The notes below the pieces were generated by a model. It had not been told where the DNA came from. It saw only the letters and a list, made by a program, of their open reading frames with translations, and did not search any database. A DNA stretch of 32,000 bases from Cupriavidus necator (GTDB lineage: Bacteria; Pseudomonadota; Gammaproteobacteria; Burkholderiales; Burkholderiaceae), in NCBI RefSeq assembly GCF_016127575.1, contig NZ_CP066019.1:600001-632000 (forward strand). The letters are read 5' to 3'. Position numbers and translations under genes: made by a program. Shown here piece after piece: positions 10,869 to 32,000 of the stretch (its first letter is position 1; each line of letters starts with the position of its first letter).

Positions 10869-10887
10869 GATGGTTTCCGGGTGGGTG

Positions 10888-11841: not shown

Positions 11842-11854
11842 GCCGGTCTCCTTG

Positions 11855-14253: not shown

Positions 14254-14272
14254 TGACACGGTAGTGCCGTCA

Positions 14273-15760: not shown

Positions 15761-15880
15761 CGTCTGCCCGCAGCCTAGTCCAAGATTAGTCTGTCGGATT
15801 CCGAATGGAAAGTGCCTTACCAACGACGCTGTTGTGGCATCCTTCCATTTCCAAGAAGAAAAAGAAGGGTAGGGGTCAAC

Positions 15881-16171
15881 ATGTATAAGGGCTTGCTGGT
15901 AGTTGCGGCCGCCGCGGCCGCCTTCATCTATTACAAAACGCACGCGCCTTTGGCAAATCCCGTTGCCCAGGCCGAGCCACAGCAGATCGAGGCTCCAGCA
16001 GTGGCAGCCACGGCGGAACCGGCATTCCGCTGCGAGGGCAAACAGCACTGCAGCCAGATGGCATCCTGCGCGGAAGCGCGCTTCTATCTGAAAAACTGCC
16101 CGGCGGTAAAGATGGATGGGGACGGCGACGGTATTCCATGTGAGACGCCGCCCCTCCAGTGCATGTTTTGA
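15881..16171 (+). CDS. Excalibur calcium-binding domain protein (small, with an N-terminal hydrophobic anchor or signal)
   Basis: It has the hydrophobic N-terminus MYKGLLVVAAAAAAFIYY. The C-terminal C...C AEARFYLKNCPAVKMDGDGDGIPCE matches the Excalibur DxDxDGxxCE motif. Confidence 0.75.
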   Translation: MYKGLLVVAAAAAAFIYYKTHAPLANPVAQAEPQQIEAPAVAATAEPAFRCEGKQHCSQMASCAEARFYLKNCPAVKMDGDGDGIPCETPPLQCMF

Positions 16172-16251
16172 CGTGCCGCTTGCTGTCCGACACCGGAACC
16201 ACGCAATGCGTCATGTGACCGACCGGCACGGGCCGCCACGAAGTCAATGGC

Positions 16252-17160: not shown

Positions 17161-17174
17161 ACCGTTTCCGCCCA

Positions 17175-17194
17175 TTCATTTCCATACTCATGAA
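17175..17194. promoter_or_regulatory. Candidate LysR operator (TTCAT-N10-ATGAA dyad)
   Basis: The dyad ttcatttccatactcatgaa lies 15 nt upstream of the LysR start, in the 144-bp divergent region. This is pattern only. Confidence 0.3.
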
Positions 17195-17304
17195 GCATAG
17201 CTAGGCTACCTAAATAACATTGGTTTGCATAGCTTCCTGCGACTACGATGGCGCAGCTTCCCGCGTTGCGGGGACGGCTCGCTTTCCACATTTCGCTACC
17301 AAAC

Positions 17305-18225
17305 ATGACGCTTCACATCAGCACACCTTTTGTACAGTCCCAGCCCAATTCGCGGCGGCTCGGCAAACCGGTCTGGCTAAAGATGGAAGCCGCACAGCCG
17401 TCCGGGTCTTTCAAGCTTCGGGGTGTCGGAGCCTTGTGTGAAGCGCGGCACGCCGCGGGCGTACAGCGATTCGTTGCATCTTCAGGCGGAAATGCCGGGC
17501 TTGCGGCAGCCTATTGCGGACGCGAACTCGGCGTTCCCGTGGTGGTGGTGGTACCGGAGAGCACACCATCGCGAGCGCGCGACCTGATCCGCCTGGAGGG
17601 CTCGGAGTTGATCGTGCGCGGAGGCACATGGGCGGAAGCGCACGAGTTTGCACTGTCCCTGATCGGGCCACGCGATGCCTTCGTGCACCCGTTCGACGAT
17701 CCGCTCATCTGGCAGGGGCACGCCACGCTGGTGGACGAGATCGCGGCATCCGGGCCGAAGCCAGGCGCCATCGTTCTTGCCGTGGGCGGTGGTGGCCTGC
17801 TGTGCGGCGTGCTGGAGGGGCTTCAGCGGAATGGCTGGTCCGACGTGCCTGTGATCGCGGTAGAAACCGACGGTGCGGACTGCTACGCCCGCTCGGTTGC
17901 CGAAGGCAGGCCGGTCGAACTCGCACAGATCACCAGCGTGGCGACGTCGCTTGGCGCCAGGCGGCCGTGTGATGGCGCGCTCCGATGGGCGCAGCGTCAC
18001 GAGATCCACAGCGTCGTTGTGTCAGACAAACAGGCGGTGGAGGCAGCGATAAGGCTTCTTGACGAACACCGCGTCCTGGTTGAGCCGGCATGCGGCGCAG
18101 CCTTGGCGGCATTGGATTGCGACACCCCGGTGCTGCAGGCGGCGTCCAGCATTGCCGTGGTGGTATGTGGCGGGGCCACGGTGACGGCACAGCAACTGCT
18201 TGACTTTGCTGCAAGGCTGGACTGA
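17305..18225 (+). CDS. PLP-dependent L-serine/L-threonine dehydratase (tryptophan-synthase beta fold)
   Basis: It has the PLP-lysine motif PSGSFKLRGV, then SSGGNAG, and the glycine loop AVGGGGLLCGV. I chose the ATG at 17305 (MTLHISTPF). Confidence 0.85.
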   Translation: MTLHISTPFVQSQPNSRRLGKPVWLKMEAAQPSGSFKLRGVGALCEARHAAGVQRFVASSGGNAGLAAAYCGRELGVPVVVVVPESTPSRARDLIRLEGSELIVRGGTWAEAHEFALSLIGPRDAFVHPFDDPLIWQGHATLVDEIAASGPKPGAIVLAVGGGGLLCGVLEGLQRNGWSDVPVIAVETDGADCYARSVAEGRPVELAQITSVATSLGARRPCDGALRWAQRHEIHSVVVSDKQAVEAAIRLLDEHRVLVEPACGAALAALDCDTPVLQAASSIAVVVCGGATVTAQQLLDFAARLD

Positions 18226-18397
18226 GCGGGCTTAAGGTAGCAATTTGGTAAGCTCGGCTACCCGCCGGCGAGATTCGCCCGAATTACCTGGTTCCGGGGA
18301 TGCCCCTCACGGCCGATTTCTGTCAGCCTGGCGTGATCCGGAGATCGGCCAGTTCCGGTGGTACAGCTAAACTCTGGCCGTGACCGCACCGTACCCA

Positions 18398-19105
18398 ATG
18401 AGCCAACCATTGACTGACACCGGCGAATCGGTGTTGCCCGCTCCCTTGCTGGTCGTCGAGGACGAGCCACTGATGCAGACCAGGCTACGCACGATCCTGG
18501 CCACGCTCGGCTATGCCGAGGAGGCCTTGTGGTTTGCCGGCAGCCTCGCCGACGCCAATGCGCTGCTAACCGCCCAGCCATTTGCGATGGTGCTGGTTGA
18601 CGTCGGGTTGCCCGACGGCAATGGCATCGACCTCATTCGCGCGTTGCACGAGCGCGATCCTGCCTTGCCAACTCTGGTAATCTCGACCTGGAACACGGAG
18701 CGCGTCATCGTGAGCGCGCTGCAGGCGGGTGCCACCGGTTACCTGCTCAAGGAGCGCGACGACCTCGAGATTTCCTTGTCGATCCGCAGTGCGCTGCGCG
18801 GCGGAGCGCCGATCGATCCTTTCGTTGCCAGGCACATCCTCGATCTGGTCGCCACGACGGCACCATTGCCAGGCGGGGCGCAAATTCATGCGCGCCGATT
18901 GGTCGGCGCGTCGCCGCTGAGCGCACGGGAAATCGAAATCCTCTCGCTGGTCGGCAAGGGCCTGACCAATCGGGAGATCGCGGATTTGCTGTCCTTGTCC
19001 AGACTGACGGTCGAATGCCACATCAGGAACATATACAAGAAGTTGGCCGTCCACTCCCGCACGCAGGCCGTTTTCGAAGCGCGTGCGCATGGCTTGTTGC
19101 GCTGA
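18398..19105 (+). CDS. NarL/FixJ-type response regulator (REC domain plus LuxR HTH)
   Basis: The REC domain shows LLVVEDEP ... MVLVDVGLPDGNG ... ATGYLLK. The C-terminal HTH reads LSAREIEILSLVGKGLTNREIADLLSLSRLTVECHIRNIYKKL. A GTG at 18380 is an alternative start. Confidence 0.9.
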   Translation: MSQPLTDTGESVLPAPLLVVEDEPLMQTRLRTILATLGYAEEALWFAGSLADANALLTAQPFAMVLVDVGLPDGNGIDLIRALHERDPALPTLVISTWNTERVIVSALQAGATGYLLKERDDLEISLSIRSALRGGAPIDPFVARHILDLVATTAPLPGGAQIHARRLVGASPLSAREIEILSLVGKGLTNREIADLLSLSRLTVECHIRNIYKKLAVHSRTQAVFEARAHGLLR

Positions 19106-21054
19106 TCTTGGGCGCCACGCTCCTCGCCGGCGCTGCAAACGCGCAGGAAGGGCCGGGCGCCACCGCCTTTACCCGCATAGAGGCTGCCCGATCGACCTGG
19201 CAGGGTGATAGCCCGCCGGCGGCGGGCTGGGTCCCAGTGAAGCTGCCGGACGACTGGTCCTCGCGCTGGCCCGATTTCGACGGCGTGGTCTGGTACCGGC
19301 TGAGCTGGCAGTGCGCAGATGCAAGCCAACCCACGGCGCTGATGCTCGCTTACCTGAATATGGCGGGGGCGGTTTATCTCAACGGCAGCTTGCTGATGCG
19401 TGACGCGAGCCTCGTCGAACCGCTCACGCGAGCCTGGAATACTCCCCGTTATCAGTTGATATCTCCGCCGTTGCTGCGGGAGGGCACCAACACGCTGCTG
19501 ATTCGCGTCTCGGGGCTGTCGGCATACCAACCCGGCCTTGGACCAGTATCGGTCGCCGACCCGGACCGCCTGCGGGCCGCTTACGAACAGGCCTACCGGC
19601 TGCGTCATGACCTGCAGTTGGTCAGCCTTGCAATCACCGTCGCGCTAGGTTGCTTCTTCTTTTCGCTCTGGGTGATGCGCCGGCAAGAAGTGACCTACGG
19701 ATGGTTCAGCCTGATGTCGCTGGCCTGGTGGTGGGTGGCGCTGAATCAGGTGGCGACGAGCACCTGGCCGTTTGCCAGTACCGATGCCTGGGGGCGCGCA
19801 AATATCATCGCGCTGCTCATCTACAGTGCTGCCTTCACGATGTCCATGGTGCGCTTCTGCGAACGGCGCCTGCCGCGCATCGAAGCGGTGCTCTGGACGC
19901 TGGTAGTGTTGGGCGCCGCCGTCATGCTCGGGGCGCCGCACGGTTACCTGACCGACGTGCGCAACACGCTGACGGTGGGACTGGCGTGCAATTTCTTCGC
20001 GACGTGCCTCGTATTTCTCTGCTTTGCCGGGCGCAGTGGTCGCACCGACCATCGCATCCTCTCGTTTTGCATTGCAATTTTCCTTGTCGCCGCGGTACAC
20101 GACCTGCTGAGCTTTCTTGGCATCCTCAAGGACAACCTCTACTACGCGGCCCTCACTTCGCAGTTCCAGATGATCGCCATGGCGCTGGTGCTGGCCTGGC
20201 GCTTCGTCGCCAACCTGCGCCGCATTGAACGATTCAATGACGAACTGCACTGCAAGATCGACGCGGCCAAGGCGGAGCTCGCAGCCAACCTGGATCGCCA
20301 GCGCGAGTTCGAAGTCGCCAATGCGCGGCTCAGTGAACGGCTCAATCTCGCACACGACCTGCACGACGGGCTCGGCGGCACGCTCGTCAGCGGAATTGCG
20401 ACACTGGAGCGCATCCCTCACGACATCCCGCCAGGCCAGGTCCTGTCGATCCTCAAGGAGCTGCGCGACGACCTGCGCATCATCATCGATACCACCTCCA
20501 GCCAGCAGTTTGGCGAGCACGCGCTGGCAGGTCAGATCGTGCCGCTGCGGCACCGTCTTACGCGGCTGTTCGAGAGCCACGACATCGAGTGCCGGTGGCA
20601 GCTCACTGGCCTCGATCAATGCTATCTGCCGACTTCGCAAATTCTTGATGTCATGAGGACCTTGCAAGAGGCGCTGACCAATGTGCTGAAGCACAGCAAG
20701 GCGAGTCGCGCGGACGTCGTCCTGCGCAATGATGCCCGGGGGCTGGAGCTGGTTGTCAGCGACAACGGAATGGGCTTCGAACCCGCCGCCATCGAACGGC
20801 ATCCGGGCACCGGCATGCGCAGCATGCGCGCGCGTACCCGGCGTCTTGGCGGGACGCTCAGCGTGCGATCCACAGGGGAGGGGACAATGCTGACCGTGCG
20901 TATCCCAATCGCGGCCGACACCCTTGGATCACCACTTGACCTGCAGCCCGGCCGATCCAGTGATCGAGTTCCTGACCCTGGCATTACCCCCCGTGGCCCA
21001 AAGCCTGCCGGCTTCGCCATAGAGACTGATCCTCCGGTTCAGGGCCAAGGTTAG
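19015..21054 (+). CDS. Sensor histidine kinase: 7TMR-DISMED2-like periplasmic domain, seven TM helices, HisKA_3 and HATPase_c
   Basis: The periplasmic region reads WVPVKLPDDWSSRWPDFDGVVWYRLSW ... GTNTLLIRV, followed by seven hydrophobic segments. The H-box is AHDLHDGLGG, the N-box is EALTNVLKHS, and the G-boxes are DNGMGF and GTGMRSM. An ATG start at 19015 would overlap the regulator gene by 91 nt, so the true start is uncertain. Confidence 0.85.
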   Translation: MPHQEHIQEVGRPLPHAGRFRSACAWLVALILGATLLAGAANAQEGPGATAFTRIEAARSTWQGDSPPAAGWVPVKLPDDWSSRWPDFDGVVWYRLSWQCADASQPTALMLAYLNMAGAVYLNGSLLMRDASLVEPLTRAWNTPRYQLISPPLLREGTNTLLIRVSGLSAYQPGLGPVSVADPDRLRAAYEQAYRLRHDLQLVSLAITVALGCFFFSLWVMRRQEVTYGWFSLMSLAWWWVALNQVATSTWPFASTDAWGRANIIALLIYSAAFTMSMVRFCERRLPRIEAVLWTLVVLGAAVMLGAPHGYLTDVRNTLTVGLACNFFATCLVFLCFAGRSGRTDHRILSFCIAIFLVAAVHDLLSFLGILKDNLYYAALTSQFQMIAMALVLAWRFVANLRRIERFNDELHCKIDAAKAELAANLDRQREFEVANARLSERLNLAHDLHDGLGGTLVSGIATLERIPHDIPPGQVLSILKELRDDLRIIIDTTSSQQFGEHALAGQIVPLRHRLTRLFESHDIECRWQLTGLDQCYLPTSQILDVMRTLQEALTNVLKHSKASRADVVLRNDARGLELVVSDNGMGFEPAAIERHPGTGMRSMRARTRRLGGTLSVRSTGEGTMLTVRIPIAADTLGSPLDLQPGRSSDRVPDPGITPRGPKPAGFAIETDPPVQGQG

Positions 21055-21229
21055 GCCGCCGGCGAGACGAACATAGTCAATGTTGAACGGGCTGCGGATG
21101 CATTCGAACCCTCGAAGCCGGGTGCAGGTCGTTCGCTGACGATCCCACGGCCAACTTCCGTAGACGACCCAGAACGGCCAACCGATTGGTCGTGGTAGAG
21201 TCGACCATCATTTCTTATCGTGTAGCCTT

Positions 21230-21811
21230 ATGTCGCCACCCGTTGAGATTCCGGCAATTGTTCCCGCGCAAACCGCGCTGGTGGTCATGCATTATCAGAC
21301 CGACATCCTGGCGCTATTTCCCTCGGTCGCGCCCACTCTGCTCTCCAACACGCGCAAGCTGTGTGACGCCGCGCGGGCCAGGGGCGTCAGCGTTTATTTT
21401 GCCAAGATCCACTTTGCTCCAGGCTATCCGGAAGTCAGTCCGTTGAACCGGAACGGGCAGGGAATCAAGCAGCTTGGTCTTTTCGTCGACGACCAGATCT
21501 CGCCGGAACTCGGCCAGCAGGCCACCGAGCCGCTGATCATCGCGCATCGCGCCAGCGTGTTCTTTGGTACTGACCTGCAGGTACGGCTTTCCGCGCAGGG
21601 TATCGATACCCTGCTCATGGTGGGCATTGCTTCGACCGGTGTGGTGCTGTCGTCGGTCGCCTATGCGAGCGATGCGGACTTCCGGCTATTCACGGTCAAG
21701 GATTGCTGCTACGACCCGGATCAGGTCGTGCACGACCATCTCTTTTCAACGGCGTTCGATTCGCGCACAACGGTGCTTTCGCTCGCTGATGCCTTGCGCT
21801 TGCTTGCCTAG
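21230..21811 (+). CDS. Isochorismatase-like hydrolase-fold protein lacking the canonical Asp-Lys-Cys triad
   Basis: By eye it is collinear with RutB and EntB: ALVVMHYQ vs ALIVVDMQ, IIAHRASVFFGTDL vs LPKPRYSGFFNTPL, and VGIASTGVVLSS vs TGIATNVCVEST. There is no obvious RBS. Confidence 0.75.
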   Translation: MSPPVEIPAIVPAQTALVVMHYQTDILALFPSVAPTLLSNTRKLCDAARARGVSVYFAKIHFAPGYPEVSPLNRNGQGIKQLGLFVDDQISPELGQQATEPLIIAHRASVFFGTDLQVRLSAQGIDTLLMVGIASTGVVLSSVAYASDADFRLFTVKDCCYDPDQVVHDHLFSTAFDSRTTVLSLADALRLLA

Positions 21812-21847
21812 CATTTCGACCTGCCAGGAGTGCCGCCGCGCCATCTC

Positions 21848-22288
21848 TCAGGCAGACGGGAAGAGCAGATGATCGGTCAGGTTGCCCTTCAGATCGAGCA
21901 TCGAATAATTCCGGCGGCTGAAGCGCCAGCGTCCGTCGACCTTTTCGAAGGCGTCATGATAGCGACCGGCCGCGATCACCTGCAGCGCGATTCGGTCGGA
22001 TGCCTGAAGGACCGTGTAGTACGATCTGACGGTAGCTGTCAGCTTGCCCGAAGCAATCTCAATGATCGGATTGCTGATGACATGCCGGGTTCTGGGCGTT
22101 CCATCCGCATGCAATTTCACATAGGCTTGCCAGAGCTTGAGCATGGCCTCGGAACCTCGCAGCACTGCATCTCCGGTGTCGATCTCTGCATGCTCGAACA
22201 GTGCGGCGACCCCAGGCAGATCGCCGGCGTCCATGCGCTCGGCATAGATGTAGAGGAGATTGGCAAGCTGCACGGCATCCTCGGTCAT
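21848..22288 (-). CDS. SnoaL-like / NTF2-fold protein (146 aa)
   Basis: It contains LANLLYIYAERMDAGDLPGVAALF ... GRYHDAFEKVDGRWRFSRR, a typical SnoaL_4-type pattern. A ggaga RBS is present. Confidence 0.75.
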   Translation of the reverse strand: MTEDAVQLANLLYIYAERMDAGDLPGVAALFEHAEIDTGDAVLRGSEAMLKLWQAYVKLHADGTPRTRHVISNPIIEIASGKLTATVRSYYTVLQASDRIALQVIAAGRYHDAFEKVDGRWRFSRRNYSMLDLKGNLTDHLLFPSA

Positions 22289-22366
22289 CGACTCGTCTCC
22301 GGTGGTTTGCGAGGATTAAAGCAGTCCGGCGCTACTCCGGCATCGTCCGCTTGGAGTACGAAGCCC

Positions 22367-23506
22367 TTACCCCATCCCCACCACACTGGACAGCAACATC
22401 TTCACCAGCAGCGCCTGCCGCGTCGCCCCGGTCTTGGCAAAGATGCCCCGCAGGTGCGCCCGTGCCGTGTTCTTCTTGATGCCGAGCCGCATCGCGGCTT
22501 CGTCCAGCGTCAGCCCGTCGACCATCAGCAAAGCCAGTTCGATCTCGGTCGGGGTCAGGTGGAACAGCTTGCGCAGGTTGGCGTGGGTGTTGCGCGGCGA
22601 TCCCGCCGGGTCGCGGATGAACACCGCCACCGCGGGTCGGCGCGACTTGTCTTCGCTGCGATAGCTGAGCGGGATCGGCCGCACCAGCACGCTCAGGGGC
22701 GTGGGCGCGGCGGGCCGGCTCAGCGTGGTGACTTCGCTGCGCGGTGCGGCCAGCGCGTGGGCCTGGGCCGCGCCTTCCAGGATCTTGCGGAACCTGCGGT
22801 TTTCCACCGGGCAGTGCGCGTGCAGCGCGCCGTCTGACAGGTAGAGGCCGTCGCGCGCCTGCAGCAGGCGGCCGGCGACGTCGTTGGTCCGGATGGTCCT
22901 GCCGTGTTCGTCCAGGATCACCGTGCCGACCTGCAGCCGGTCGACGGCATCCGCGTACAGGGACCGTTCGGATGCAAGCACGTCGAGCGCGGCATGCAGG
23001 TCCACTGCGCGCTTCAGGTGCGGCAGCAGGCCGTGCAGCAGTGCCTTGTCGGCCTCGCCGAAGTCCTGTCCCGCGTGGACGCGGCTGATGAACAGCGCGC
23101 ATTCCACGCCGTCGGGCGTGACCAGGTTGGCCGCCAGGATATAGCGCAGGCCCAGCGGTTGAAGGTATTGCGTGTAGAAGGGGTGTGCCAGCCAGCCGGC
23201 TTCGCCAAACAGTTCGTCGGCGCTGAAGAGCCGGTCCGGGTGCAGGTCCAGGAAGGGGCACAGCGCGTAGTACTGCTCGCTGTACGAGGGCTCGCCCGGC
23301 AGGTGCGGGCCGTAGTCGGAGGCATTGACGATCAGGCCCGGCCGGTCGGTGGCAGGGTGGCGCAGCACCAGCGTGACGAAGGCGGCGCCCAGGCGCTGGC
23401 GCACGCTTTCCAGGAAGCCGGCCCAGGGCATGGCTTCGGTCGGGCCCTGGTAGAGCTGGGCGAGCAGGGCGCTCAGCTCGGCGGCGGGCAGGGGGGCTGG
23501 CAGCAT
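22367..23506 (-). CDS. LuxR-family transcriptional regulator (C-terminal HTH, about 300-aa N-terminal sensory region)
   Basis: The C-terminal HTH reads LTPTEIELALLMVDGLTLDEAAMRLGIKKNTARAHLRGIFAKTG. I chose the ATG at 23506 (MLPAPLPAAEL) because the ORF extension to 23746 runs through the REP elements. Confidence 0.85.
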   Translation of the reverse strand: MLPAPLPAAELSALLAQLYQGPTEAMPWAGFLESVRQRLGAAFVTLVLRHPATDRPGLIVNASDYGPHLPGEPSYSEQYYALCPFLDLHPDRLFSADELFGEAGWLAHPFYTQYLQPLGLRYILAANLVTPDGVECALFISRVHAGQDFGEADKALLHGLLPHLKRAVDLHAALDVLASERSLYADAVDRLQVGTVILDEHGRTIRTNDVAGRLLQARDGLYLSDGALHAHCPVENRRFRKILEGAAQAHALAAPRSEVTTLSRPAAPTPLSVLVRPIPLSYRSEDKSRRPAVAVFIRDPAGSPRNTHANLRKLFHLTPTEIELALLMVDGLTLDEAAMRLGIKKNTARAHLRGIFAKTGATRQALLVKMLLSSVVGMG

Positions 23507-23592
23507 GATGGCGGTCCGTCGGGTCGTGGCAACAGTCAAAAGCGCGAATCTCGCCCCTGATTGCTGACAAAACCCGCATGCCGCGGGTTTGC

Positions 23593-23633
23593 TCCCCTCT
23601 CCCGCTTGCGGGAGAGGGGCCGGGGGAGAGGGC
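23593..23633. repeat. REP-like GC-rich palindromic element, copy 1
   Basis: The sequence is ctcccctctcccgc tt gcgggagagggg ccgggggagagggc. The internal stem (about 11 bp) pairs 23594-23604 with 23609-23619. Confidence 0.8.
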
Positions 23634-23676
23634 AGGCATTGGCAGTATCGACAGCCTGCACTTCGTCGACACACCG

Positions 23677-23715
23677 GCCCTCTCCCCAACCCTCTCCCGC
23701 AAGCGGGAGAGGGAG
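23677..23715. repeat. REP-like element, copy 2, inverted relative to copy 1
   Basis: The sequence is gccctctccccaaccctctcccgc aa gcgggagagggag. It is a near reverse complement of copy 1 and has its own 11-bp stem (23690-23700 with 23703-23713). Confidence 0.8.
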
Positions 23716-23831
23716 CACACAACTGGTCATTCAGACTCAATGGCACTTGGCAAGCTTGTCAGCACTCCGAGACGCAAATCCCGCTGTTCCCATCGTACCG
23801 ACCCCGTCCGTCGCCTCATCGTCCGTTCGGC

Positions 23832-25766
23832 CTAGGGCTTCTCCCGCAGCCACGCCACGATCCGCTCCGCCGCCTGCTGCGCGGTGTCGGCGGTAGTGTC
23901 GATGCGGATCTCGGGCCGCTCGGGCGGCTGGTACGGCGAATCGATGCCGGTGAAGTTCTTCAGCTCGCCGCGCCGCGCCTTGCGGTACAGGCCCTTGGGG
24001 TCGCGTTGCTCGGCCACCGCCAGCGGCGTGTCAATGAAGACTTCGACGAAATCGCCGTCGCCGGCGAGCGCGCGGGCCATCTCGCGTTCCGAGCGGAACG
24101 GCGAGATAAAGGACACCAGCACGATCAGGCCCGCATCGAGCATCAGCCTTGCCACTTCCGCCACGCGCCGGATGTTCTCGACGCGGTCGGCCTCGGCGAA
24201 GCCCAGGTCCTTGTTCAGGCCGTGGCGCACGTTGTCGCCGTCGAGCAGGTAGGTGTGGTGGCCCAGCGCGTGCAGGCGCTTTTCCACCAGGTTGGCGATG
24301 GTGGACTTGCCCGCGCCGGAGAGCCCGGTGAACCAGACGATGCGCGGCGACTGGTGCTTGAGCGCGGCATGGGCGCGGCGGTCCACGTCGATGGCCTGCC
24401 AGTGCACGTTCTGCGCCCGGCGCAGCGCAAAGTGCAGCATGCCGGCGCCGACCGTGTTGTTGCTGAGACGGTCGATGATGATGAAGCCGCCCAGCTCGCG
24501 GTTGCGCGCGTAGGGATCGAAGGCCACCGGCTGGTCCAGGTGCAGGTTGCACACGCCGATCTCGTTCAGCTCCAGCGTGCGCGCGGCCAGGTGTTCGAGC
24601 GTGTTGACATTGACCTTGTACTTGGGCTGCGCCACGGTCACGCCCACGGTGCGCGTGCCGAGCTTGAGCAGGTAGGGGCGCCCGGGCAGCATGGCGTCCT
24701 CGTTCATCCACACCAGCGTGGCCTCGAACTGGTCGGCCACTGCCGGCGGGTCTTGCGGGCAGGCCAGCACGTCGCCGCGGCTGATGTCGATCTCGTCCTC
24801 CAGCGTCAGCGTCACCGCCTGGCCGCGCATGGCGTGCTCGCACGCGCCGGCGGCGCCGACGATGCCGGCCACGCGGCTCTCGCGGCCCGAGGGCAGCGCG
24901 CGCACGCGGTCGCCACGGCGGATCTCGCCGGCGCTGACGGTGCCGGCAAAGCCGCGGAAGTCCAGGTTGGGCCGGTTGACCCACTGCACCGGCAACCGGA
25001 ACGGTTCGCCTTGCACGGGCGCGTTGTCGATCGGCACGTTTTCCAGGTGGGCCATCAGCGTCGGGCCGTGGTACCACGGGGTATTGGCGCTGGGCTCGGT
25101 GATGTTGTCGCCGCGCAGGGCCGACATCGGAATGCAGGTGATATCGGTCAGGCCGATCTGCCGGGCGAACTCCCGGTACTCGTTCTCGATGCGCGTATGG
25201 ACCTCGCGCGAGTAGTCGACCATGTCCAGCTTGTTGACGGCCAGCACCACACGGCGAATGCCAAGCGTGGCCACCAGGTAGCTGTGGCGGCGCGTCTGGG
25301 TCTGCACGCCGCGGCGCGCATCCACCAGCAGGATGGCCAGGTCGGCGGTGGAGGCCCCGGTGACCATGTTGCGCGTGTACTGTTCGTGCCCGGGCGTGTC
25401 GGCGACGATGAACTTGCGCTTGTCGGTGGCGAAGAAGCGGTAGGCCACGTCGATGGTGATGCCTTGTTCGCGCTCCGCGGCCAGGCCGTCCACCAGCAGC
25501 GCGAAGTCGAGGTTCTCGCCCTGCGTGCCCATTTTCTTCGAGTCGGCCTCCAGCTGGGCGAGCTGGTCTTCGAACAGCATCTTGGATTCATACAGCAGCC
25601 GGCCGATCAGCGTGCTCTTGCCGTCGTCGACGCTGCCGCAGGTGATAAAGCGCAGCAGGCTCTTGTTTTGCTGGGCGCGCAGGTAGTGGGCGATCTCGCC
25701 CGAGGTGCCGGTGGCTTGCGCGGCGTCCTGCGCAAGCGCGGGCGCGGTGTCGATCAGGGTTTCCAT
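23832..25766 (-). CDS. cysNC: Bifunctional sulfate adenylyltransferase subunit 1 (CysN GTPase) fused to adenylylsulfate (APS) kinase (CysC)
   Basis: The ORF is 644 aa. GTPase motifs are [17 protein letters not shown] and NKLD. The C-terminal APS-kinase part has the P-loop GLSGAGKST, plus [11 protein letters not shown] and SFISPF. Its ATG shares 1 nt with the cysD stop (TGATG). Confidence 0.95.
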
Positions 25767-26662
25767 CAGAAGTATCCCTCCTGCTTCTTTTTTTCCATCG
25801 ATCCGGCCGAGTCGCTGTCGATCAGCCGTCCCTGGCGCTCCGAGGTGGTTGCCAGCAGCATTTCCTGGATGATGCCGCCGAGGGTGTCGGCCTCGCTCTC
25901 GATCGCGCCGGTGAGCGGGTAGCAGCCCAGCGTGCGGAAGCGCACCTTGCGCAGCTGCGGCGTTTCTCCGGGGCGCAGCGGCAGGCGCTCGTCGTCGACC
26001 ATGATCAGCGTGCCGTCGCGCTCCACCACCGGGCGCTCCTTGGCGTAGTAGAGCGGCACGATGGGGATGTCGTTCAGGTAGATGTATTGCCAGATGTCCA
26101 GCTCGGTCCAGTTGGACAGCGGGAACACGCGCAGGCTTTCGCCCTTGCGCTTGCGGGTGTTGTACTGGCGCCAGAGCTCGGGGCGCTGCATCTTCGGGTC
26201 CCAGCGGTGCTGGGCGGTGCGTACCGAGAACACGCGCTCCTTGGCGCGCGACTTTTCCTCGTCGCGGCGCGCGCCGCCGAAGGCGGCGTCAAAGCCGTAG
26301 TGGTCCAGCGCCTGCTTCAGGCCCTGGGTCTTCCACACGTCGGTATGGACGGCGGAGCCGTGCTCGTGCGGGCTGATATTGCGCGCCAGCCCTTCAGGGT
26401 TGACATGCACGCGCAGGTCCAGGCCAAGCCGCGCGGCGGTCTGGTCGCGGAACGCGATCATCTCGCCGAACTTCCATGTGGTATCGACATGCAGCAGCGG
26501 GAACGGCGGCCGCGCGGGATGGAAGGCCTTCATGGCAAGGTGCAGCATCACGGCGCTGTCCTTGCCGATGGAATAGAGCATGACGGGGTTTTCGCATTCC
26601 GCCACCACCTCCCGCATGATGTGGATGCTCTCCGCCTCCAGTTGCTCCAGGTGGGTCAACAT
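25766..26662 (-). CDS. cysD: Sulfate adenylyltransferase subunit 2 (CysD)
   Basis: It starts [19 protein letters not shown] and has the PP-loop-like YSIGKDSAV. It also has [11 protein letters not shown] and [16 protein letters not shown]. The ATG at 26662 has a gaggag RBS. Confidence 0.95.
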
Positions 26663-26763
26663 CGGGATCTCCTCTTGGTTTGCCGGCGCCGTGCAGGGAT
26701 GTCGCGGCGGTCTGGCATGGGCACAAGGTAGCGAGCCGGGGCCCTTCGCCACTTCGTCCGGGC

Positions 26764-26804
26764 GGACTAAGAAGTCGCGGGACGCGGCGCGCATTTCCTA
26801 GTCC
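26764..26804. promoter_or_regulatory. Imperfect inverted repeat (10-bp arms, 21-bp spacer) in the cysD / DUF1214 divergent promoter region
   Basis: The arms are ggactaagaa (26764-26773) and ttcctagtcc (26795-26804), with 9 of 10 positions complementary. It is either a candidate operator or a 5'-UTR hairpin. Confidence 0.3.
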
Positions 26805-26874
26805 ACCCGGACGAGGCTGGGGCGGCCCCGCGCTCGGTATCGTTGCTTCGCCGACGAACCACGGGAGCAGGCAG

Positions 26875-27993
26875 ATGGCGAACTCCGCCGAAGAACAATT
26901 GCTGAGCGGCCAGACCTGGGCCGAGTTTTGCGAGGTGCTCAAGCGCAGCGGGCAGCAGATCCTGCGCCCGGAGGCCCCGTCGGACGCGCTCACGCGCGCC
27001 GAGGGCTTCCGCTACCTGAGCCGCCTGCTGCGCATTGCGCTGGAGATGCATGTGGAATTTGCCGATCCGGCGTTTCCCGGCTTCTTCTCGCCGTCGCACG
27101 AAACCGCCAAGATCGGCGCGGACAATCCGGACAACCTGTACCGATACGCACGCCTGGACGGCAGTGCCGAGTACCGCATCCGCGGCCGGCGCGGCACGGT
27201 GGCGTACCTGAGTTTCGGCACGCAGAAGGGCGGCTATGAAACCGACGGGCGCATGGTCCAGACCGGCTTTCTCGACAGCAACAAGCTGGCAGTGGCGGCC
27301 GATGGCAGTTTCGAGATCGCCCTCAGCGCGCGCCAGCACGAAGGCAACTGGGTGCGCATGGAGCCGGGCACCAACGCGCTGGTGGTGCGGCAGACCTTTA
27401 TGGACCGCAAGGCCGAGACCCCGGCCGAACTGCACATCGAGCGCCTCAATGGCAGCGACAAGCCGCCCGTGCTCGACGCTGAACGCCTGCATGGCGGCCT
27501 GCTGCGCGCCGCTGGCTTTGTCGAGGGGACCGCGCGCATCTTCGCCGACTGGGCCCAGGGCTATGGCGGCCATGTCAATGCGCTGCCGCCCGCCGACCAG
27601 GCCGTATGCCAGGCGGCCGGCGGCGATCCCAACATCTTCTACTACCACTCCTGCTGGGCGCTGGCGGACGACGAGGCGCTGGTGGTCGAGGTGGACCGGG
27701 TGCCGGCCTGCGATTTCTGGAATTTCCAGATCAACAACTACTGGATGGAGTCGCTCGACTACCGCTACCACGACATCTGCCTGAACAAGCACAGTGCCCG
27801 CCTGGATGCCAACGGCGGCGTCACCGTCGTCCTCAGCGCGCGCGATCCGGGCCTGCCCAACTGGCTGGAAGCCGCGGGCCACCGCAACGGCACCATGTGC
27901 TGGCGCTGGGTGGGGGCGGCGCAGCCGGTGCATCCGCGCACGCGCGTGGTCAAGCTTGAATCGCTCAGGAATGAATGCCGGGAGAACGCATGA
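26875..27993 (+). CDS. DUF1214-like protein of unknown function (372 aa)
   Basis: The ATG at 26875 has a gggag RBS. The protein has no signal peptide. The coding call is solid (high GC3 frame; the stop overlaps the next start as ATGA). The family assignment rests on recalled DUF1214-type motifs (EGFRYLSRLLR, GADNPDNLY) and is unverified. Confidence 0.8.
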   Translation: MANSAEEQLLSGQTWAEFCEVLKRSGQQILRPEAPSDALTRAEGFRYLSRLLRIALEMHVEFADPAFPGFFSPSHETAKIGADNPDNLYRYARLDGSAEYRIRGRRGTVAYLSFGTQKGGYETDGRMVQTGFLDSNKLAVAADGSFEIALSARQHEGNWVRMEPGTNALVVRQTFMDRKAETPAELHIERLNGSDKPPVLDAERLHGGLLRAAGFVEGTARIFADWAQGYGGHVNALPPADQAVCQAAGGDPNIFYYHSCWALADDEALVVEVDRVPACDFWNFQINNYWMESLDYRYHDICLNKHSARLDANGGVTVVLSARDPGLPNWLEAAGHRNGTMCWRWVGAAQPVHPRTRVVKLESLRNECRENA

Positions 27994-29183
27994 ACACCAT
28001 CGCATCCGACCACACCGCAGTGCTTGACGTGGAGCGACTGCTGGCACAGGCCAGCGCACAGTCCGGCGGACTGACTGACTTTGGCCCGGGCGATTACCGC
28101 GAGGCGCTGGCGGTGCTGTCCGACTCGCTTGCGCGCGAAGCCGGGCTGTCGCCGCAGGGCGCGCAGATGCTGCAAGGCAAGCTGCAGGCGCAACTGGTGA
28201 ACCGGCTGGTGATCCAGGACTACTGCCGGCGCTATCCCGAAATCCTGGAAGAGCGCGTCGACGATCCGCTGGTGATCGTCGGCCTGCCGCGCACCGGCAC
28301 CACGCTGCTGCAGCGCATGCTGGCCACGGACGCGCGCTTCCACTCGGCGGCGTGGTGGGAAACGCGCTACCCGGCGCCGCTGCCCGGCGAGGACGTGCGC
28401 GATGCCGGCCGGCGCATCGGGCTGGCGCGCGAGGAGGTGGCGCAGATGATCCGCTTTATCCCGGACATCCTCGCCATCCATCCGCTCGACGCGATGGCGG
28501 CCGACGAGGAATTCATGCTGATGGAGCATTCCTTCCTGTGCGCGATGGATTCCTACGCCAACGTGCCGTCCTATACCGACTGGCTGGCGCGCCAGGACCA
28601 CACCCAGGTCTATGCCTACCTGAAGACCATGCTGCAGTTCCTGCAGTGGCAGAAGCGGCAGCGCGGCGAGCCGCCGGCGCAGCGGTGGGTGCTGAAGACG
28701 CCGCAGCACCTGCATACGCTGGAAATCCTGTTCCGGGTCTTCCCCGGCGCGCAGGTCGTGCTGACCCATCGCGACCCCGCCCAGACCATTCCGTCGATGG
28801 CCAGCATGGCGCATACGCTGTGGAAGCTGTACGCCGACGCGCCCGATGCCGCCACGGTGGGGCGGCAGTGGAGCGGGCAGATGCAGCGCGCCACCGCCCA
28901 TGCCATGACGGTGCGCGACGGGCTGCCTGCCGATTGCTTCCTCGACGTGCGTTTCGAGGATACCGTGCGCGATCCCTTCGGCGTGGCGCAGGCGGTCTAC
29001 CGCTTTGCCGGCATGCCGCTGACCGAGTCCGCGCGCGCCGGCATGTGGGCATGGATGGAGGGCAACCCGCGCAACCAGCGCGCGGCGCACGCCTATACGC
29101 TGGAGCAGTTCGGACTGAGCCAGGAACAACTGGAACGCGATTTCGCCGGCTACCGCGCACGGCACATCCTGAAGCAAAACTAA
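27990..29183 (+). CDS. PAPS-dependent sulfotransferase family protein (Sulfotransfer_3-like)
   Basis: The 5'-PSB-like loop is VIVGLPRTGTTLLQRML and the 3'-PB-like segment is VLTHRDPAQTIPSMAS. There is a ggaga RBS. The ATG overlaps the upstream stop (ATGA). Confidence 0.85.
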   Translation: MNTIASDHTAVLDVERLLAQASAQSGGLTDFGPGDYREALAVLSDSLAREAGLSPQGAQMLQGKLQAQLVNRLVIQDYCRRYPEILEERVDDPLVIVGLPRTGTTLLQRMLATDARFHSAAWWETRYPAPLPGEDVRDAGRRIGLAREEVAQMIRFIPDILAIHPLDAMAADEEFMLMEHSFLCAMDSYANVPSYTDWLARQDHTQVYAYLKTMLQFLQWQKRQRGEPPAQRWVLKTPQHLHTLEILFRVFPGAQVVLTHRDPAQTIPSMASMAHTLWKLYADAPDAATVGRQWSGQMQRATAHAMTVRDGLPADCFLDVRFEDTVRDPFGVAQAVYRFAGMPLTESARAGMWAWMEGNPRNQRAAHAYTLEQFGLSQEQLERDFAGYRARHILKQN

Positions 29184-29216
29184 GACTGCGCACTGCGCAT
29201 CACAGGAGACAACACC

Positions 29217-30008
29217 ATGCTGTTGAAAGACAAGGTCGTCATCGTGTCGGGAATCGGTCCCGGGCTGGGCGTCAAGCTGGCCGTTGAGGCGGCGCGCGAA
29301 GGCGCCCGCGCCGTTGCCATCGCCGCGCGCACCGCGGCGAAGCTGGACGACGCCCAAGCCCGCATCGATGCACTAGGCGCCGACTGCGAAGTGCTCAAGG
29401 TGGTGACCGACATCACCGACCGGGCCCAGTCCCGGCACCTGGCCGGCGAGACCATGCGCCGCTTCGGCCGCATCGATGCGCTGGTCAACAGCGCCTTCCA
29501 GCATGGCAACTTCCCCGAGCCGGTGGAAGCGGCCGACCTGGATGTCTGGCGCCAGGTGTTCGACACTAACGTGTTCGGCACCATGACGCTGACGCAGGAA
29601 GTGGCGGCGCTGATGAAGCCGCAGGGCGGCGGCGCCATTGTCATGATCAACACCCAGGCCACGCGCAAGCCGATGCCCGGCGAATCCGGCTACGCGACGT
29701 CCAAGGGCGCGCTGGCGGTGGCGGTCAAGTACCTGGCGCGCGAACTGGGCCCGCATGGCATCCGCGCCAACAGCATCTTCATGGGCTGGATGTGGGGCGA
29801 GCCGGTGCAGGGCTATGTGCGCCACGCCGCGGCCGAGCAGGGCGTGAGCGAGGACACCGTGATCGCGCCGGTGACCGCGCAGATTGCGCTGGGCCGCATG
29901 CCGACCGACGACGACTGCGCGCGCGCTGCGCTGTTTCTCGTGTCAGACTACGCTAGGGCCATCACCGGCGCTTCGCTCGATGCCAACGGCGGCGATTTCA
30001 TGCCCTGA
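29217..30008 (+). CDS. SDR-family oxidoreductase
   Basis: It has the cofactor loop VVIVSGIGPGLG, then NSAF, and the catalytic YATSKGAL (YxxxK). An aggaga RBS lies upstream. It starts 33 nt after the sulfotransferase gene. Confidence 0.88.
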   Translation: MLLKDKVVIVSGIGPGLGVKLAVEAAREGARAVAIAARTAAKLDDAQARIDALGADCEVLKVVTDITDRAQSRHLAGETMRRFGRIDALVNSAFQHGNFPEPVEAADLDVWRQVFDTNVFGTMTLTQEVAALMKPQGGGAIVMINTQATRKPMPGESGYATSKGALAVAVKYLARELGPHGIRANSIFMGWMWGEPVQGYVRHAAAEQGVSEDTVIAPVTAQIALGRMPTDDDCARAALFLVSDYARAITGASLDANGGDFMP

Positions 30009-30023
30009 GTCCTGACCACACCA

Positions 30024-30989
30024 ATGACACGCTACTTTGCCTTCAACGGCGACGCCGACGGCCTGTGCGCCCTGCAGCAGCTGCGCCTGGCGCAGCCCGG
30101 CGACGCCACGCTGGTCACCGGCGTCAAGCGCGATATCCGGCTGCTCGAGCGCATCGACGCCGGGCCCGGCGATACCGTGACCGCGCTGGACATCTCGCTG
30201 GAGCAGAACCGCGATGGCCTGATGCGGCTGCTCGGCGCCGGTGCGCGGGTGGACTACTTCGACCACCACCATGCCGGCGAACTGCCCGGGCATGCCGGCC
30301 TGTGCGCGCATATCGACGAGGGGCCGGAGGTCTGCACCAGCCTCCTGGTCGACCGCCACCTGGACGGCTGCCACCGGCGCTGGGCGATCACCGCCGCGTT
30401 CGGCGACAACCTGGGCAGCGTGGCGCGCGCGCTGGCGGCGCAGGCCGGGCTGGGCGAGCGCGAAACCGCGGTGCTGGAACAGCTGGGCACGTGCCTGAAC
30501 TACAACGCCTATGGCGAGTGCGTGGCGGACCTGCATTTCGATCCCGCCGAGCTGGCGCGGCACATGCTGCCGTTTGCCGACCCGCTGGCGTTCGCCGCGC
30601 AATGCGGGGCCTATGCGGTGCTGTGCGACGGCTATGCGGACGACATGGCCCGCGCGCGCTGCCTGGCGCCCGCGCACGAAGTGCCCGGCGCCGCGCTGCT
30701 GGTGCTGCCTGACGCGCCGTGGGCCCGGCGCGCGATCGGCGTGCTGGCCAATGAACTGGTGCGCGGGCGGCCCGGCGACGCCATCGGCCTGCTCTCGCCG
30801 AAGTCCGGCGGCGGCTTTGCCGTCAGCGTGCGGGTGCCCGCCCACAGTCCCACCGGGGCGGCCGATTTCTGCCGCGGCTTCGAGACCGGCGGCGGCCGGC
30901 GCCTGGCAGGCGGCATCAACCACCTGCCGGACGCCGAAGTGGAGCGCTTCACGCGCTGCTTTGCAGATTGCTTCGGTCCCCGTTCCTGA
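30024..30989 (+). CDS. DHH-family phosphoesterase-like protein
   Basis: It has FNGDADGLCAL (DxDxDG-type motif I), ALDIS (motif II candidate), DYFDHHH (DHH motif III) and a C-terminal ETGGGRRLAGG (DHHA1 GGGH-like). It starts 15 nt after the SDR stop. Confidence 0.7.
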   Translation: MTRYFAFNGDADGLCALQQLRLAQPGDATLVTGVKRDIRLLERIDAGPGDTVTALDISLEQNRDGLMRLLGAGARVDYFDHHHAGELPGHAGLCAHIDEGPEVCTSLLVDRHLDGCHRRWAITAAFGDNLGSVARALAAQAGLGERETAVLEQLGTCLNYNAYGECVADLHFDPAELARHMLPFADPLAFAAQCGAYAVLCDGYADDMARARCLAPAHEVPGAALLVLPDAPWARRAIGVLANELVRGRPGDAIGLLSPKSGGGFAVSVRVPAHSPTGAADFCRGFETGGGRRLAGGINHLPDAEVERFTRCFADCFGPRS

Positions 30990-30993
30990 TAAT

Positions 30994-32000
30994 TCAGCAC
31001 GGCGGCACGAACTCGGTGACCTCCAGGTCGAAGCCGGTGACGGCGCGATACGGCACCGGGTGGCTGAGCAGGCGCAGCCTGTGCGCCCCCACATCGCGCA
31101 GGATCTGCGCCCCGACCCCCAGCGCGCGTTGCGCGAAGGCCGGCGCCGGCGTGGCGGCGGCCGGCGCTGCCAGCCGCTCCAGCCGCTGCTGCGGCGATTC
31201 GCGCTCATCCAGCAGCACCAGCACCCCACAACCTTCGGCGCCGATGCGGGCGAGCGAGCGCTCCAGGTTCCAGGCGGGCAGGGCCGGCGCGCCGAAGCCG
31301 AGCACGTCGCGCTGCATTTCCACTGCCTGCACGCGCGTCAGCACCGGGCGCTGCGGGTCGGGCTGACCCAGCACCAGCGCCAGATGGAGCGCATCGACCG
31401 GCGCGTCATGGTAGGCGTGCACGGTGAAGCATCCATAGGGCGTAGCCAGTTCCGTCGAATGCGTGCGGCACAGTGCGCTTTCGGTCAGCAGCCGGTGGTG
31501 GATCAGCCCGCTGATCGAAACCGCCGGCAGGCCGTGGTGCCGCGCGAAGGCCAGCAGGGCGGGGCCGCGCAGCAGGTCGCCGTCGTCATCGAGCAGCATC
31601 GCGTAGGCGCCGGCGGCCACGCGCCCGGCCAGCGCCGGCAGGTCGGAGCAGGCCTCGGCAAAGCCCGCGCGGCGCAGCACGCCGTCGGGCTGGGCCACCA
31701 CCGGGAAGATGTGGCCGGGCTGGACCAGGTCATGCGGCTGCGCGCGCGCTGCCGCCGCCACGCGCAGCGTGAGCGCGCGGTCGGCGGCGGAGATGCCGGT
31801 GCTGACGCCGCTGGCCGCTTCGATCGACACCGTGTAGCGCTCGCGCTGGCGGTGGTTCGCGGCCATCGGCGGCAGCTGCAGCAGCGCGCGGCGCGCCTCG
31901 GTGATTGCCATGCAGACCAGGCCGCGCGCCTCGGCGGCCATGAAGTTGACATCGGCCTCGCTGGCGCGCTCGGCGGCAACCAGGACGCAGCCGGTGGCCT
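30994..32000 (-). CDS. RibBA-like protein (DHBP-synthase-like plus GTP-cyclohydrolase-II-like domains, both apparently non-canonical); N-terminus is off-window
   Basis: By eye it is collinear with E. coli RibB (TVSIEAASGVSTGISAADR, QPGHIFPV) and RibA (LATPYGCF..., RPVLTRV...). The frame stays open upstream of Met 31941 to the window edge (ATGCVLVAAERASEADVNF). Confidence 0.8.
   Translation of the reverse strand, partial: ATGCVLVAAERASEADVNFMAAEARGLVCMAITEARRALLQLPPMAANHRQRERYTVSIEAASGVSTGISAADRALTLRVAAAARAQPHDLVQPGHIFPVVAQPDGVLRRAGFAEACSDLPALAGRVAAGAYAMLLDDDGDLLRGPALLAFARHHGLPAVSISGLIHHRLLTESALCRTHSTELATPYGCFTVHAYHDAPVDALHLALVLGQPDPQRPVLTRVQAVEMQRDVLGFGAPALPAWNLERSLARIGAEGCGVLVLLDERESPQQRLERLAAPAAATPAPAFAQRALGVGAQILRDVGAHRLRLLSHPVPYRAVTGFDLEVTEFVPPC

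Follow-up and report, generated by a model that had tools for sequence, protein, structure and literature searches.

In the NodPQ/NodH system of Rhizobium and the RaxPQ/RaxST system of Xanthomonas, a CysD protein and a CysN-CysC fusion feed 3'-phosphoadenosine 5'-phosphosulfate (PAPS) to a linked sulfotransferase, in hosts that assimilate sulfate through adenosine 5'-phosphosulfate (APS). Here we analyze a 32,000-nt stretch of the Cupriavidus necator genome (assembly GCF_016127575.1, contig NZ_CP066019.1, positions 600,001 to 632,000 of the forward strand; the whole stretch is called the window), which contains a comparable cassette at positions 23832-30989, with a CysD and CysN-CysC pair, probably dedicated, linked to a sulfotransferase. 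The acceptors of the two described systems are a lipochitooligosaccharide (NodH) and the RaxX peptide (RaxST), and their partner genes differ from those of the window, where the cassette also encodes a DUF1214-like protein, a short-chain dehydrogenase/reductase (SDR) and a DHH-type protein, a candidate phosphatase of 3'-phosphoadenosine 5'-phosphate (PAP). We know of no PAP phosphatase, DUF1214-like protein or SDR linked to NodPQ/NodH or RaxPQ/RaxST.

Two sulfotransferases from other bacteria are likened to the window enzyme by description. BtSULT of Bacteroides thetaiotaomicron is presumably adjoined by cysC, cysD and cysN, belongs to a host-associated anaerobe and has no DUF1214-like, SDR or DHH partners. 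It is a PAPS-dependent enzyme that acts on steroid alcohols and accounts for cholesterol and steroid sulfation (PMC13449962). ErSULT of Eubacterium ramulus is also PAPS-dependent, with a predicted fold that matches STF1 of Mycobacterium tuberculosis, and sulfates 3- and 16-hydroxyhexadecanoic acid (PMC13449962); its acceptor is a linear lipid, and no DUF1214-like/sulfotransferase/SDR trio or PAPS module has been reported for it.

Dedicated PAPS and sulfotransferase cassettes are thus known for Nod factor, RaxX and gut steroids, but our literature search found no description of the version reported here, widespread as it is. Searches on Cupriavidus cys genes and on DUF1214 with sulfotransferase gave nothing usable, and a search on Comamonas, sulfotransferase and steroid degradation gave nothing relevant.

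We consider it likely that this region forms a PAPS-dependent sulfation unit, self-sufficient and regulated, with one module for the PAPS cycle and one for the acceptor. In the proposed mechanism, CysD and the CysN part of CysNC would adenylate sulfate to APS, the CysC part would phosphorylate APS to PAPS, and the Stf1-type sulfotransferase would transfer the sulfo group onto a hydroxyl of a cytoplasmic hydrophobic small molecule. The sulfotransferase would work with the translationally coupled DUF1214-like protein and with the SDR, which most likely makes or removes the acceptor hydroxyl through ketone/alcohol interconversion. The DHH/DHHA1-fold enzyme (30024-30989) would hydrolyze the inhibitory PAP to AMP and phosphate. 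A LuxR-type regulator probably acts on an 18-bp palindrome that occurs both in the promoter region between the divergent operons and ahead of a detached SRPBCC gene, and by binding this palindrome would control both operons.

Gene organization of the cassette

The minus strand carries cysNC (23832-25766; 644 aa), coding for the GTPase subunit of ATP sulfurylase joined to APS kinase (NF004035 and Pfam), and cysD (25766-26662; 298 aa, starting MLTHLEQ), coding for the small subunit of ATP sulfurylase (NF009214). Both genes share base 25766 inside a TGATG overlap (...TTCTGATGGAA...), and a spacer of 212 bp (26663-26874) separates them from four genes on the plus strand. These encode the DUF1214-like protein (26875-27993; 372 aa, partial match to Pfam DUF1214), the Stf1-type PAPS-dependent sulfotransferase (27990-29183; 397 aa, Sulfotransfer_3), an SDR oxidoreductase of the PRK07890 subfamily (29217-30008; 263 aa, NF005909) and the DHH/DHHA1-fold protein, the proposed PAP phosphatase (30024-30989; 321 aa, assigned with an AlphaFold 2 model and Foldseek). 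Successive gaps between them are -4, 33 and 15 nt, the first being a 4-nt overlap of the DUF1214-like and sulfotransferase genes. A preliminary description made from the sequence alone had given this arrangement, including the TGATG coupling, the 212-bp divergence and the gap sizes, and every coordinate and junction holds.

The GC content at third codon positions is 0.84-0.93 in all six open reading frames (ORFs), which is the coding pattern of this genome. Inspection of the N-termini by eye revealed no obvious signal peptide in any of the six proteins, and the chemistry is therefore probably cytoplasmic. A candidate gene for a LuxR/GerE-type regulator (22367-23506, minus strand; 379 aa, marginal GerE match) completes the set.

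Distribution and locus layouts

A search of a single genome for each species, with an alignment of the DUF1214-like protein as the query, found at least 588 relatives. The locus counts given from here on refer to the best 80 of these relatives in species-representative genomes, in which an SDR was counted if a homologue with at least 50% identity was found within 8 kb, and a LuxR homologue at the same identity. The nearest locus was that of Cupriavidus sp. UYPR2.512, with 95.9% nucleotide identity across 22364-32000; the block conserved across Cupriavidus begins at 22364.

In 76/80 loci the sulfotransferase gene adjoins the gene for the DUF1214-like protein, and all three members of the DUF1214-like/sulfotransferase/SDR trio are found in 62/80. 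Three layouts were distinguished. The window-type layout A (33/80) has the LuxR gene, cysNC and cysD divergent from the DUF1214-like, sulfotransferase, SDR and DHH genes, and was found in Cupriavidus, the Burkholderia cepacia complex, Paraburkholderia, Collimonas and one Pseudomonas group. Conservation of the neighbourhood in related genomes had been set beforehand as a test of the sulfation hypothesis; the six genes and the LuxR gene occur together in these 33 loci, beyond Burkholderiaceae and into Pseudomonas.

Layout B (11/80) has a cysQ gene divergent from a single long operon made up of cysD, cysNC and the genes for the DUF1214-like protein, the sulfotransferase, an EthD-like protein, a SnoaL_4 protein, an SRPBCC protein, the SDR and a further SnoaL_4 protein. 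Ten of these 11 loci belong to the Pseudomonas putida group, Comamonas testosteroni and its relatives, and Aromatoleum, and the remaining one, from a Steroidobacteraceae genome, has CysQ and cysD/cysNC in a divergent arrangement. Layout C (34/80) contains no PAPS genes within 10 kb, as is also the case in Mycobacterium. Its closer members, from Nevskiaceae, Solimonas, Algiphilus, Hydrocarboniphaga and Marinobacterium, have a clear trio, and several of the most distant loci, including those of Halieaceae, are without a close SDR or an adjacent sulfotransferase. Since layout C and the mycobacterial loci do without PAPS genes, the trio is the conserved core, and the PAPS genes are an add-on in some lineages.

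In Undibacterium arcticum (L006:3902-6694), tblastn found homologues of the DUF1214-like protein and the sulfotransferase (~70% identity) where no genes are called and the neighbouring calls are fragmented; frameshifts or decay of this cassette, or a poor assembly, may be the cause. The cassette was not found in the plasmid collection, where only generic cysDN matches (74-76% identity) were detected.

The sulfotransferase, DUF1214-like protein and SDR

The sulfotransferase matches Pfam Sulfotransfer_3 (PF13469) with 142.5 bits, against a cut-off of 27, and contains the motifs GLPRTGTTLLQRML and THRDPAQTIPS. Its closest PDB entries by sequence are 2zq5 (E 7e-51) and 2z6v (E 7e-42), the structures of M. 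tuberculosis Stf1 and M. avium Stf9, respectively. Presence of the PAPS-binding residues was another test set in advance, and all eight of them, G98, R101, G103 and T105 of the GLPRTGTT loop and T259, H260, R261 and S269 of the THRDP...S motif, are invariant in an alignment of 87 homologues that includes mycobacterial ones, among them M. tuberculosis Stf1.

For the DUF1214-like protein, the match to Pfam DUF1214 (PF06742; 32.9 bits against a cut-off of 25) covers a partial profile, with no single stretch passing. PDB entry 6ANS matches it with E 1e-192, and a single-sequence AlphaFold model was unusable (predicted local distance difference test, pLDDT, of 41.6). The SDR is assigned by NF005909 (365 bits, cut-off 258) and Pfam adh_short_C2 (152.7 bits); its best PDB match is 3ucx (E 1e-49), and models of the FabG type match it as well.

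When a database was searched with the 2ZQ5 sequence, all the proteins retrieved came from Mycobacterium. On the M. tuberculosis-complex contig that carries Stf1, three overlapping genes encode a 375-aa protein with no Pfam match on record, a 260-aa SDR and Stf1, which correspond by position to Rv3531c (DUF1214-like), Rv3530c (SDR) and Rv3529c (Stf1). Pairwise BLASTP comparisons with the window proteins gave 30% identity for the DUF1214-like protein (E 6e-33), 38% for the SDR (E 6e-55) and 34% for the sulfotransferase (E 2e-57), and by these alignments the window trio is homologous to Rv3531c-Rv3530c-Rv3529c.

This mycobacterial trio is the nearest relative of the window trio, and is itself not a characterized system. 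In both, the genes are tightly packed or overlapping and the PAPS-binding residues are the same, but the gene order is DUF1214-like, SDR, sulfotransferase in M. tuberculosis and DUF1214-like, sulfotransferase, SDR in the window. Genes for CysDNC, a PAP phosphatase or a LuxR protein are missing from the M. tuberculosis locus. It adjoins kshA and side-chain degradation genes, and in M. kansasii the same trio is found beside kstD-like and hsaEFG-like genes. Rv3531c is listed as needed for growth on cholesterol, and the substrate of STF1 was still called unknown in a 2026 paper (PMC13449962).

Predicted PAPS supply by CysD and CysNC

CysNC scores 1084 bits against the bifunctional model NF004035 (cut-off 715) and has Pfam GTP_EFTU, GTP-eEF1A_C and APS_kinase domains in one chain; its APS-kinase part contains the P-loop GLSGAGKST and a DGDN motif. 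By sequence it matches PDB 1zun_B (E 1e-152) and M. tuberculosis CysC (E 2e-53). CysD passes NF009214 (573.6 bits, cut-off 413) and TIGR02039 (505 bits, cut-off 397), has the SIGKDS PP-loop motif and matches PDB 1zun_A (E 9e-144). The assignment of the pair as CysD and a CysN fused to an APS-kinase domain, made in the preliminary description, is thus borne out by curated models passed with wide margins and by the expected motifs.

CysD proteins linked to the cassette are 79-87% identical to the window CysD and cluster together. Those from Pseudomonas are 84-87% identical to the window copy, and 70-74% identical to the P. syringae CysD of PDB 1ZUN, which we take to be the housekeeping copy. The cassette-linked sequences form a clade apart from this single available Pseudomonas housekeeping CysD. 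Because the Pseudomonas cassette copies side with the other cassette copies and not with 1ZUN, the comparison argues that the cassette carries its own cysD lineage, which would have moved between classes.

In the ten layout-B loci with the long operon, about 340 codons upstream of cysD are in the same frame with no intervening stop. Three of these stretches were scanned with Pfam (L052:6049-7968, L042:5953-8007 and L043:5071-7059); they carry IS630-like HTH_23/29/33 matches, and two of the three also have weak DDE_3 matches. CysD may here be fused to what is left of a domesticated transposase, or the frame may be open without coding for protein. A TauE/SafE-family anion permease is encoded within the cassette of Collimonas (L069:3193-3978) and Aromatoleum (L043:9136-9921), and could move sulfate or sulfite for it.

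The DHH protein as a candidate PAP phosphatase

The protein encoded by the last gene gave no Pfam, NCBIfam or PDB sequence match, and a minority of its homologues carry PF02272. In an alignment of 38 homologues, D10, D12, D56, D80-H81-H82 and D128 are invariant and make up the DxD, D, DHH and D motifs. Its AlphaFold 2 model (pLDDT 94.7) retrieved 62 PDB matches with Foldseek at E<=0.001, and the 50 best listed are all DHH-family proteins. The top match was 8a8k, the PAP phosphatase of Methanothermococcus thermolithotrophicus (MtPAPP; TM-score 0.72-0.74), followed by RecJ, NrnA, Rv2837c and other DHH-family enzymes. The label DHH given to this gene beforehand was therefore appropriate, with invariant metal motifs and a DHH/DHHA1 fold despite the missing Pfam match.

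MtPAPP hydrolyzes PAP rapidly and specifically, with Asp8, Asp10, Asp57, Asp127, His76 and His77 as its metal ligands (PMC10322725). D10, D12, D56, H81, H82 and D128 of the window protein correspond to D8, D10, D57, H76, H77 and D127 of MtPAPP, and the two proteins share the two-domain DHH/DHHA1 fold (PDB 8A8K) along with all six ligands. The MtPAPP gene, like the cassette DHH gene, sits with ATP sulfurylase and APS kinase genes; MtPAPP serves assimilation, whereas the window protein would serve a sulfotransferase.

PAP is a by-product of sulfotransferases and also their inhibitor (PMC3141025). A PAP phosphatase candidate was found in all 44 of the 80 loci that contain cysD/cysNC, namely the DHH protein in 33 and CysQ in 11, the cassette CysQ proteins scoring 293-299 bits against the equivalog model TIGR01331. 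Exactly one of the two is present in each locus, an either/or pattern that is expected if two enzymes of unrelated origin perform one function. The genes run cysD-cysNC-DHH in Pseudomonas fluorescens, Collimonas and Noviherbaspirillum, and the DHH gene there overlaps the cysNC stop by 4 nt (L007, L069 and L092). As a candidate accompanies cysD/cysNC in 44/44 loci, the cassette would make PAPS, use it and remove the resulting PAP. The last gene is most likely a PAP phosphatase, and hence most likely part of the PAPS cycle and not of the acceptor chemistry.

A cysD-cysNC-DHH triad was also found inside an exopolysaccharide or O-antigen cluster (L091:5124-9795), with a small Sulfotransfer_3 protein of 263 aa. 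This arrangement suggests reuse of the PAPS-cycle module in polysaccharide sulfation.

A candidate LuxR-type regulator and a conserved palindromic box

The LuxR-type protein has a marginal GerE match (24.2 bits against a cut-off of 23.5), and its homologue in P. citronellolis shows a weak PAS_4 match. Homologues are encoded in 33/33 layout-A loci, usually just downstream of cysNC. In the divergent spacer, an 18-bp palindromic box (TTCGTCCGGGCGGACTAA, 26753-26770) and a second, inverted copy (26798-26815) stand out as sharply conserved islands between Cupriavidus and Burkholderia sequences that are otherwise diverged. The consensus is TTMGTCCG-NN-CGGACKAA. Counting related-locus boxes with up to 3 mismatches to the palindrome, and with shuffled sequence as the control, one was found upstream of the DUF1214-like gene in 33/33 layout-A loci, with 0 matches in the shuffles.

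Scanning the window for the box gave 5 matches, where 0.28 were expected. Apart from the two spacer copies, these are at 5613-5630 (3 mismatches; 39 nt upstream of the SRPBCC start), at 1321-1338 (1 mismatch; in the 3' end of a TetR gene, a position conserved in L001 and L013) and at 23818-23835 (3 mismatches; over the cysNC stop codon). The box also occurs in P. putida-type loci, where it separates a LuxR homologue from a DUF1329-kshA operon, the identity of kshA being supported by Pfam KshA_C (220 bits). Because the box and the LuxR-type gene strictly co-occur, the LuxR-type protein is the likely binder. The suggestion that it could be the local regulator, which had been based on its position, gains from this strict association with an operator-like palindrome (33/33 loci).

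Detached genes, the REP pair and neighbouring genes

An SRPBCC/Polyketide_cyc2 gene at 5056-5574 (minus strand) can be regarded as a detached accessory member of the cassette, by orthology to the cassette SRPBCC. Its product is 65% identical to the SRPBCC protein encoded inside the Comamonas testosteroni cassette, and homologues are found in 41/80 loci. In another C. necator locus (L001) this gene is two genes from cysNC, beside a LuxR-like gene; in the window strain a 16.7-kb insertion parts it from the cassette. Comparison of the window with C. necator EM36 and another assembly of this species showed two insertions, at 1683-5055 (3.4 kb) and at 5667-22364 (16.7 kb), which contain unrelated metabolic and regulatory genes and part the TetR and SRPBCC genes from the LuxR-cysNC end. 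A SnoaL_4 gene at 21848-22288 was considered as a further member and rejected, as it is not an orthologue of the cassette SnoaL_4 genes and lies outside the block conserved in Cupriavidus.

Between the LuxR gene and cysNC there is a repetitive extragenic palindromic (REP)-like pair, composed of two inverted 24-nt hairpin units (23595-23618 and 23690-23713), with 0 matches expected by chance; the preliminary description had pointed it out correctly. The segment 23512-23676, which includes the first unit and the spacer to the second, is missing from the locus of C. necator EM36, and in other Cupriavidus relatives the alignment is also lost across the REP region, with different boundaries. The pair looks like a recent, strain-specific insertion that is outside the mechanism, and a role as a regulatory element was rejected, given its absence from close relatives.

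On the other side, a ribBA-like gene (30994-31941, minus strand) with 3,4-dihydroxy-2-butanone 4-phosphate synthase and GTP cyclohydrolase II domains converges on the proposed PAP phosphatase gene. With 302 bits against a curated cut-off of 513 it is a divergent paralogue, and it adjoins the cassette in all the Cupriavidus loci scanned. In C. necator loci L001-L003 the genes after it encode an esterase, an SDR and another paralogue of the LuxR protein (54% identical). An Rfam scan of 21000-32000 found no RNA family, and promoter and terminator consensus scans gave matches not above chance.

Recurrent neighbours and the possible acceptor

Across the 80 loci the recurrent extra genes encode SRPBCC proteins (41/80), two groups of SnoaL_4 proteins and EthD-like proteins, in many loci inside the operon. 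These are small folds that typically hold hydrophobic ligands. Steroid markers, counted as homologues of mycobacterial kshA, kstD or hsaEFG with at least 40% identity within 10 kb, are near the trio in 20/80 loci. A gene pair for outer-membrane DUF1302/DUF1329 proteins is nearby in 20/80, and either this pair or a steroid marker in 29/80.

The proposal that a small hydroxylated molecule is sulfated, and not a peptide, agrees with the conserved SDR, SRPBCC, SnoaL-like and EthD-like partners. Our best guess for the acceptor is an alcohol that the cell encounters in catabolism, either steroid-like or otherwise polycyclic or a lipid, with a steroid-like or polycyclic alcohol being favoured because of the recurrent neighbours and steroid markers and the location of the mycobacterial trio. 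In Algiphilus (L064), the trio lies near genes for a wax-ester synthase/diacylglycerol acyltransferase (16355-17776) and a DUF3604 protein (922-2946), and also near meta-cleavage genes (a tesD/hsaD-like hydrolase and hsaEFG-like genes) and a long flavin reductase gene.

Discussion

The simplest alternative to a dedicated sulfation unit is that cysD-cysNC is the sulfate-activation operon of the cell, used for housekeeping assimilation, and that its neighbours are unrelated. CysD and CysNC are indeed full-length and match general models, and the CysN-CysC fusion by itself is not diagnostic of specialized sulfation, because in Pseudomonas the housekeeping gene, too, is a cysN-cysC fusion. Nevertheless, we regard this explanation as very unlikely: linkage to the trio and to a PAP phosphatase candidate is conserved across Beta- and Gammaproteobacteria, the Pseudomonas cassette CysD is closer to the Cupriavidus copy than to P. 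syringae CysD, and the divergent promoter common to both operons carries a cassette-specific candidate operator. Furthermore, Burkholderiales reduce APS directly, and no APS kinase is required for assimilation. Dedicated sulfation, as the preliminary description had proposed, is supported by the conserved linkage and by the invariant PAPS-binding residues. A narrower doubt concerns the last gene, which might encode a general DHH nanoRNase or cyclic-dinucleotide phosphodiesterase, PAP being removed by a CysQ encoded elsewhere. Foldseek also returned NrnA, Rv2837c, GdpP and RecJ at probability 1.0, and the DHHA1 motif of the window protein is GGGR, where related DHHA1 enzymes have GGGH. However, the TM-score to the PAP phosphatase contrasts with 0.3-0.55 to the group of NrnA and GdpP, three rearranged loci show translational coupling of the gene to cysNC, DHH and CysQ are never found together in the 44 cysD/cysNC loci, and the DHH gene goes with cysD-cysNC into an unrelated polysaccharide sulfation cluster, all of which make a general nuclease or phosphodiesterase improbable.

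With regard to the acceptor, it is possible, and we propose it tentatively, that the trio performs an undescribed sulfation of a steroid or related polycyclic alcohol in catabolism, common to M. tuberculosis and many Proteobacteria. The sulfate might act as the leaving group in an elimination, or it might mark an intermediate so that this stays in solution or inside the cell. A somewhat less probable option, and in our judgement an unlikely one, is that the same machinery acts on a hydroxy fatty acid or another acyl lipid, such as a 3-hydroxyacyl product of the FabG-like SDR, yielding an envelope or signalling lipid and not a catabolic intermediate. The activity of ErSULT on hydroxyhexadecanoic acids, with its STF1-like predicted fold, points in this direction (PMC13449962), as do the scores of the SDR against FabG-type models and the wax-ester synthase/diacylglycerol acyltransferase gene near the Algiphilus trio. 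Other mycobacterial Stf enzymes make sulfated lipids as well. Against it, genes of fatty-acid or lipid biosynthesis are not recurrent among the 80 loci, the cassette has no exporter or acyltransferase gene as a conserved companion, and the neighbours that do recur are SRPBCC, SnoaL_4, EthD-like, meta-cleavage or kshA/kstD-type genes. Sulfation of tyrosine in a peptide or protein, of the RaxST or tyrosylprotein sulfotransferase (TPST) type, is hardly credible. Weak similarity to tyrosylprotein sulfotransferases was detected (E 8e-4 to 5e-3), and the GLPRTGTT 5'-phosphosulfate-binding loop resembles that of TPST; but the matches to 2zq5 and 2z6v are far stronger, the conserved partners are small-molecule enzymes, and no peptidase-containing ABC exporter was found by Pfam scans of the window or among the annotated recurrent neighbour clusters. 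Likewise, neither nod genes nor a RaxABC-type transporter were found in the window or among the recurrent neighbours; short RaxX-like or precursor ORFs were not searched for.

Several observations weigh against the reading of the cassette as a self-sufficient unit acting on steroid-like alcohols. Steroid markers are near only 5 of the 33 layout-A loci, leaving 28/33 without them, and, in contrast to the M. tuberculosis locus, the 32,000-nt window has no homologue of kshA, kstD or hsaEFG. ErSULT, with its STF1-like fold, acts on hydroxy fatty acids and not on steroids (PMC13449962). A close relative of the DUF1214-like protein, 6ANS, was deposited as an "uncharacterized protein". The DHH protein and MtPAPP have 14% identity over the structural alignment, and DHH enzymes also include nanoRNases and cyclic-dinucleotide phosphodiesterases. 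Finally, the CysD tree has P. syringae (PDB 1ZUN) as its one housekeeping outgroup and was rooted at the midpoint.

The presence of a DHH protein in most of the loci with cysD/cysNC bears on the biology of PAP removal in general. MtPAPP was presented as an archaeal solution, found in 168 archaea (PMC10322725). Our data suggest that DHH-type PAP phosphatases, recently presented as an archaeal invention, are common in bacteria and interchangeable with CysQ.

The cassette also ties Proteobacteria to an open question in M. tuberculosis, that of the substrate of Stf1 and the role of Rv3531c. Relatives of the DUF1214-like protein occur in organisms that serve as models, among them Cupriavidus necator, Pseudomonas putida, the Burkholderia cepacia complex and Comamonas testosteroni, and the conserved candidate operator and the LuxR-type regulator give a direct route to the inducer and from there to the acceptor. 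The cassette would gain greatly in importance if the trio turned out to carry out a sulfation step of steroid catabolism; if this is true, the proteobacterial cassettes would be a tractable model that gives Stf1 and Rv3531c a function.

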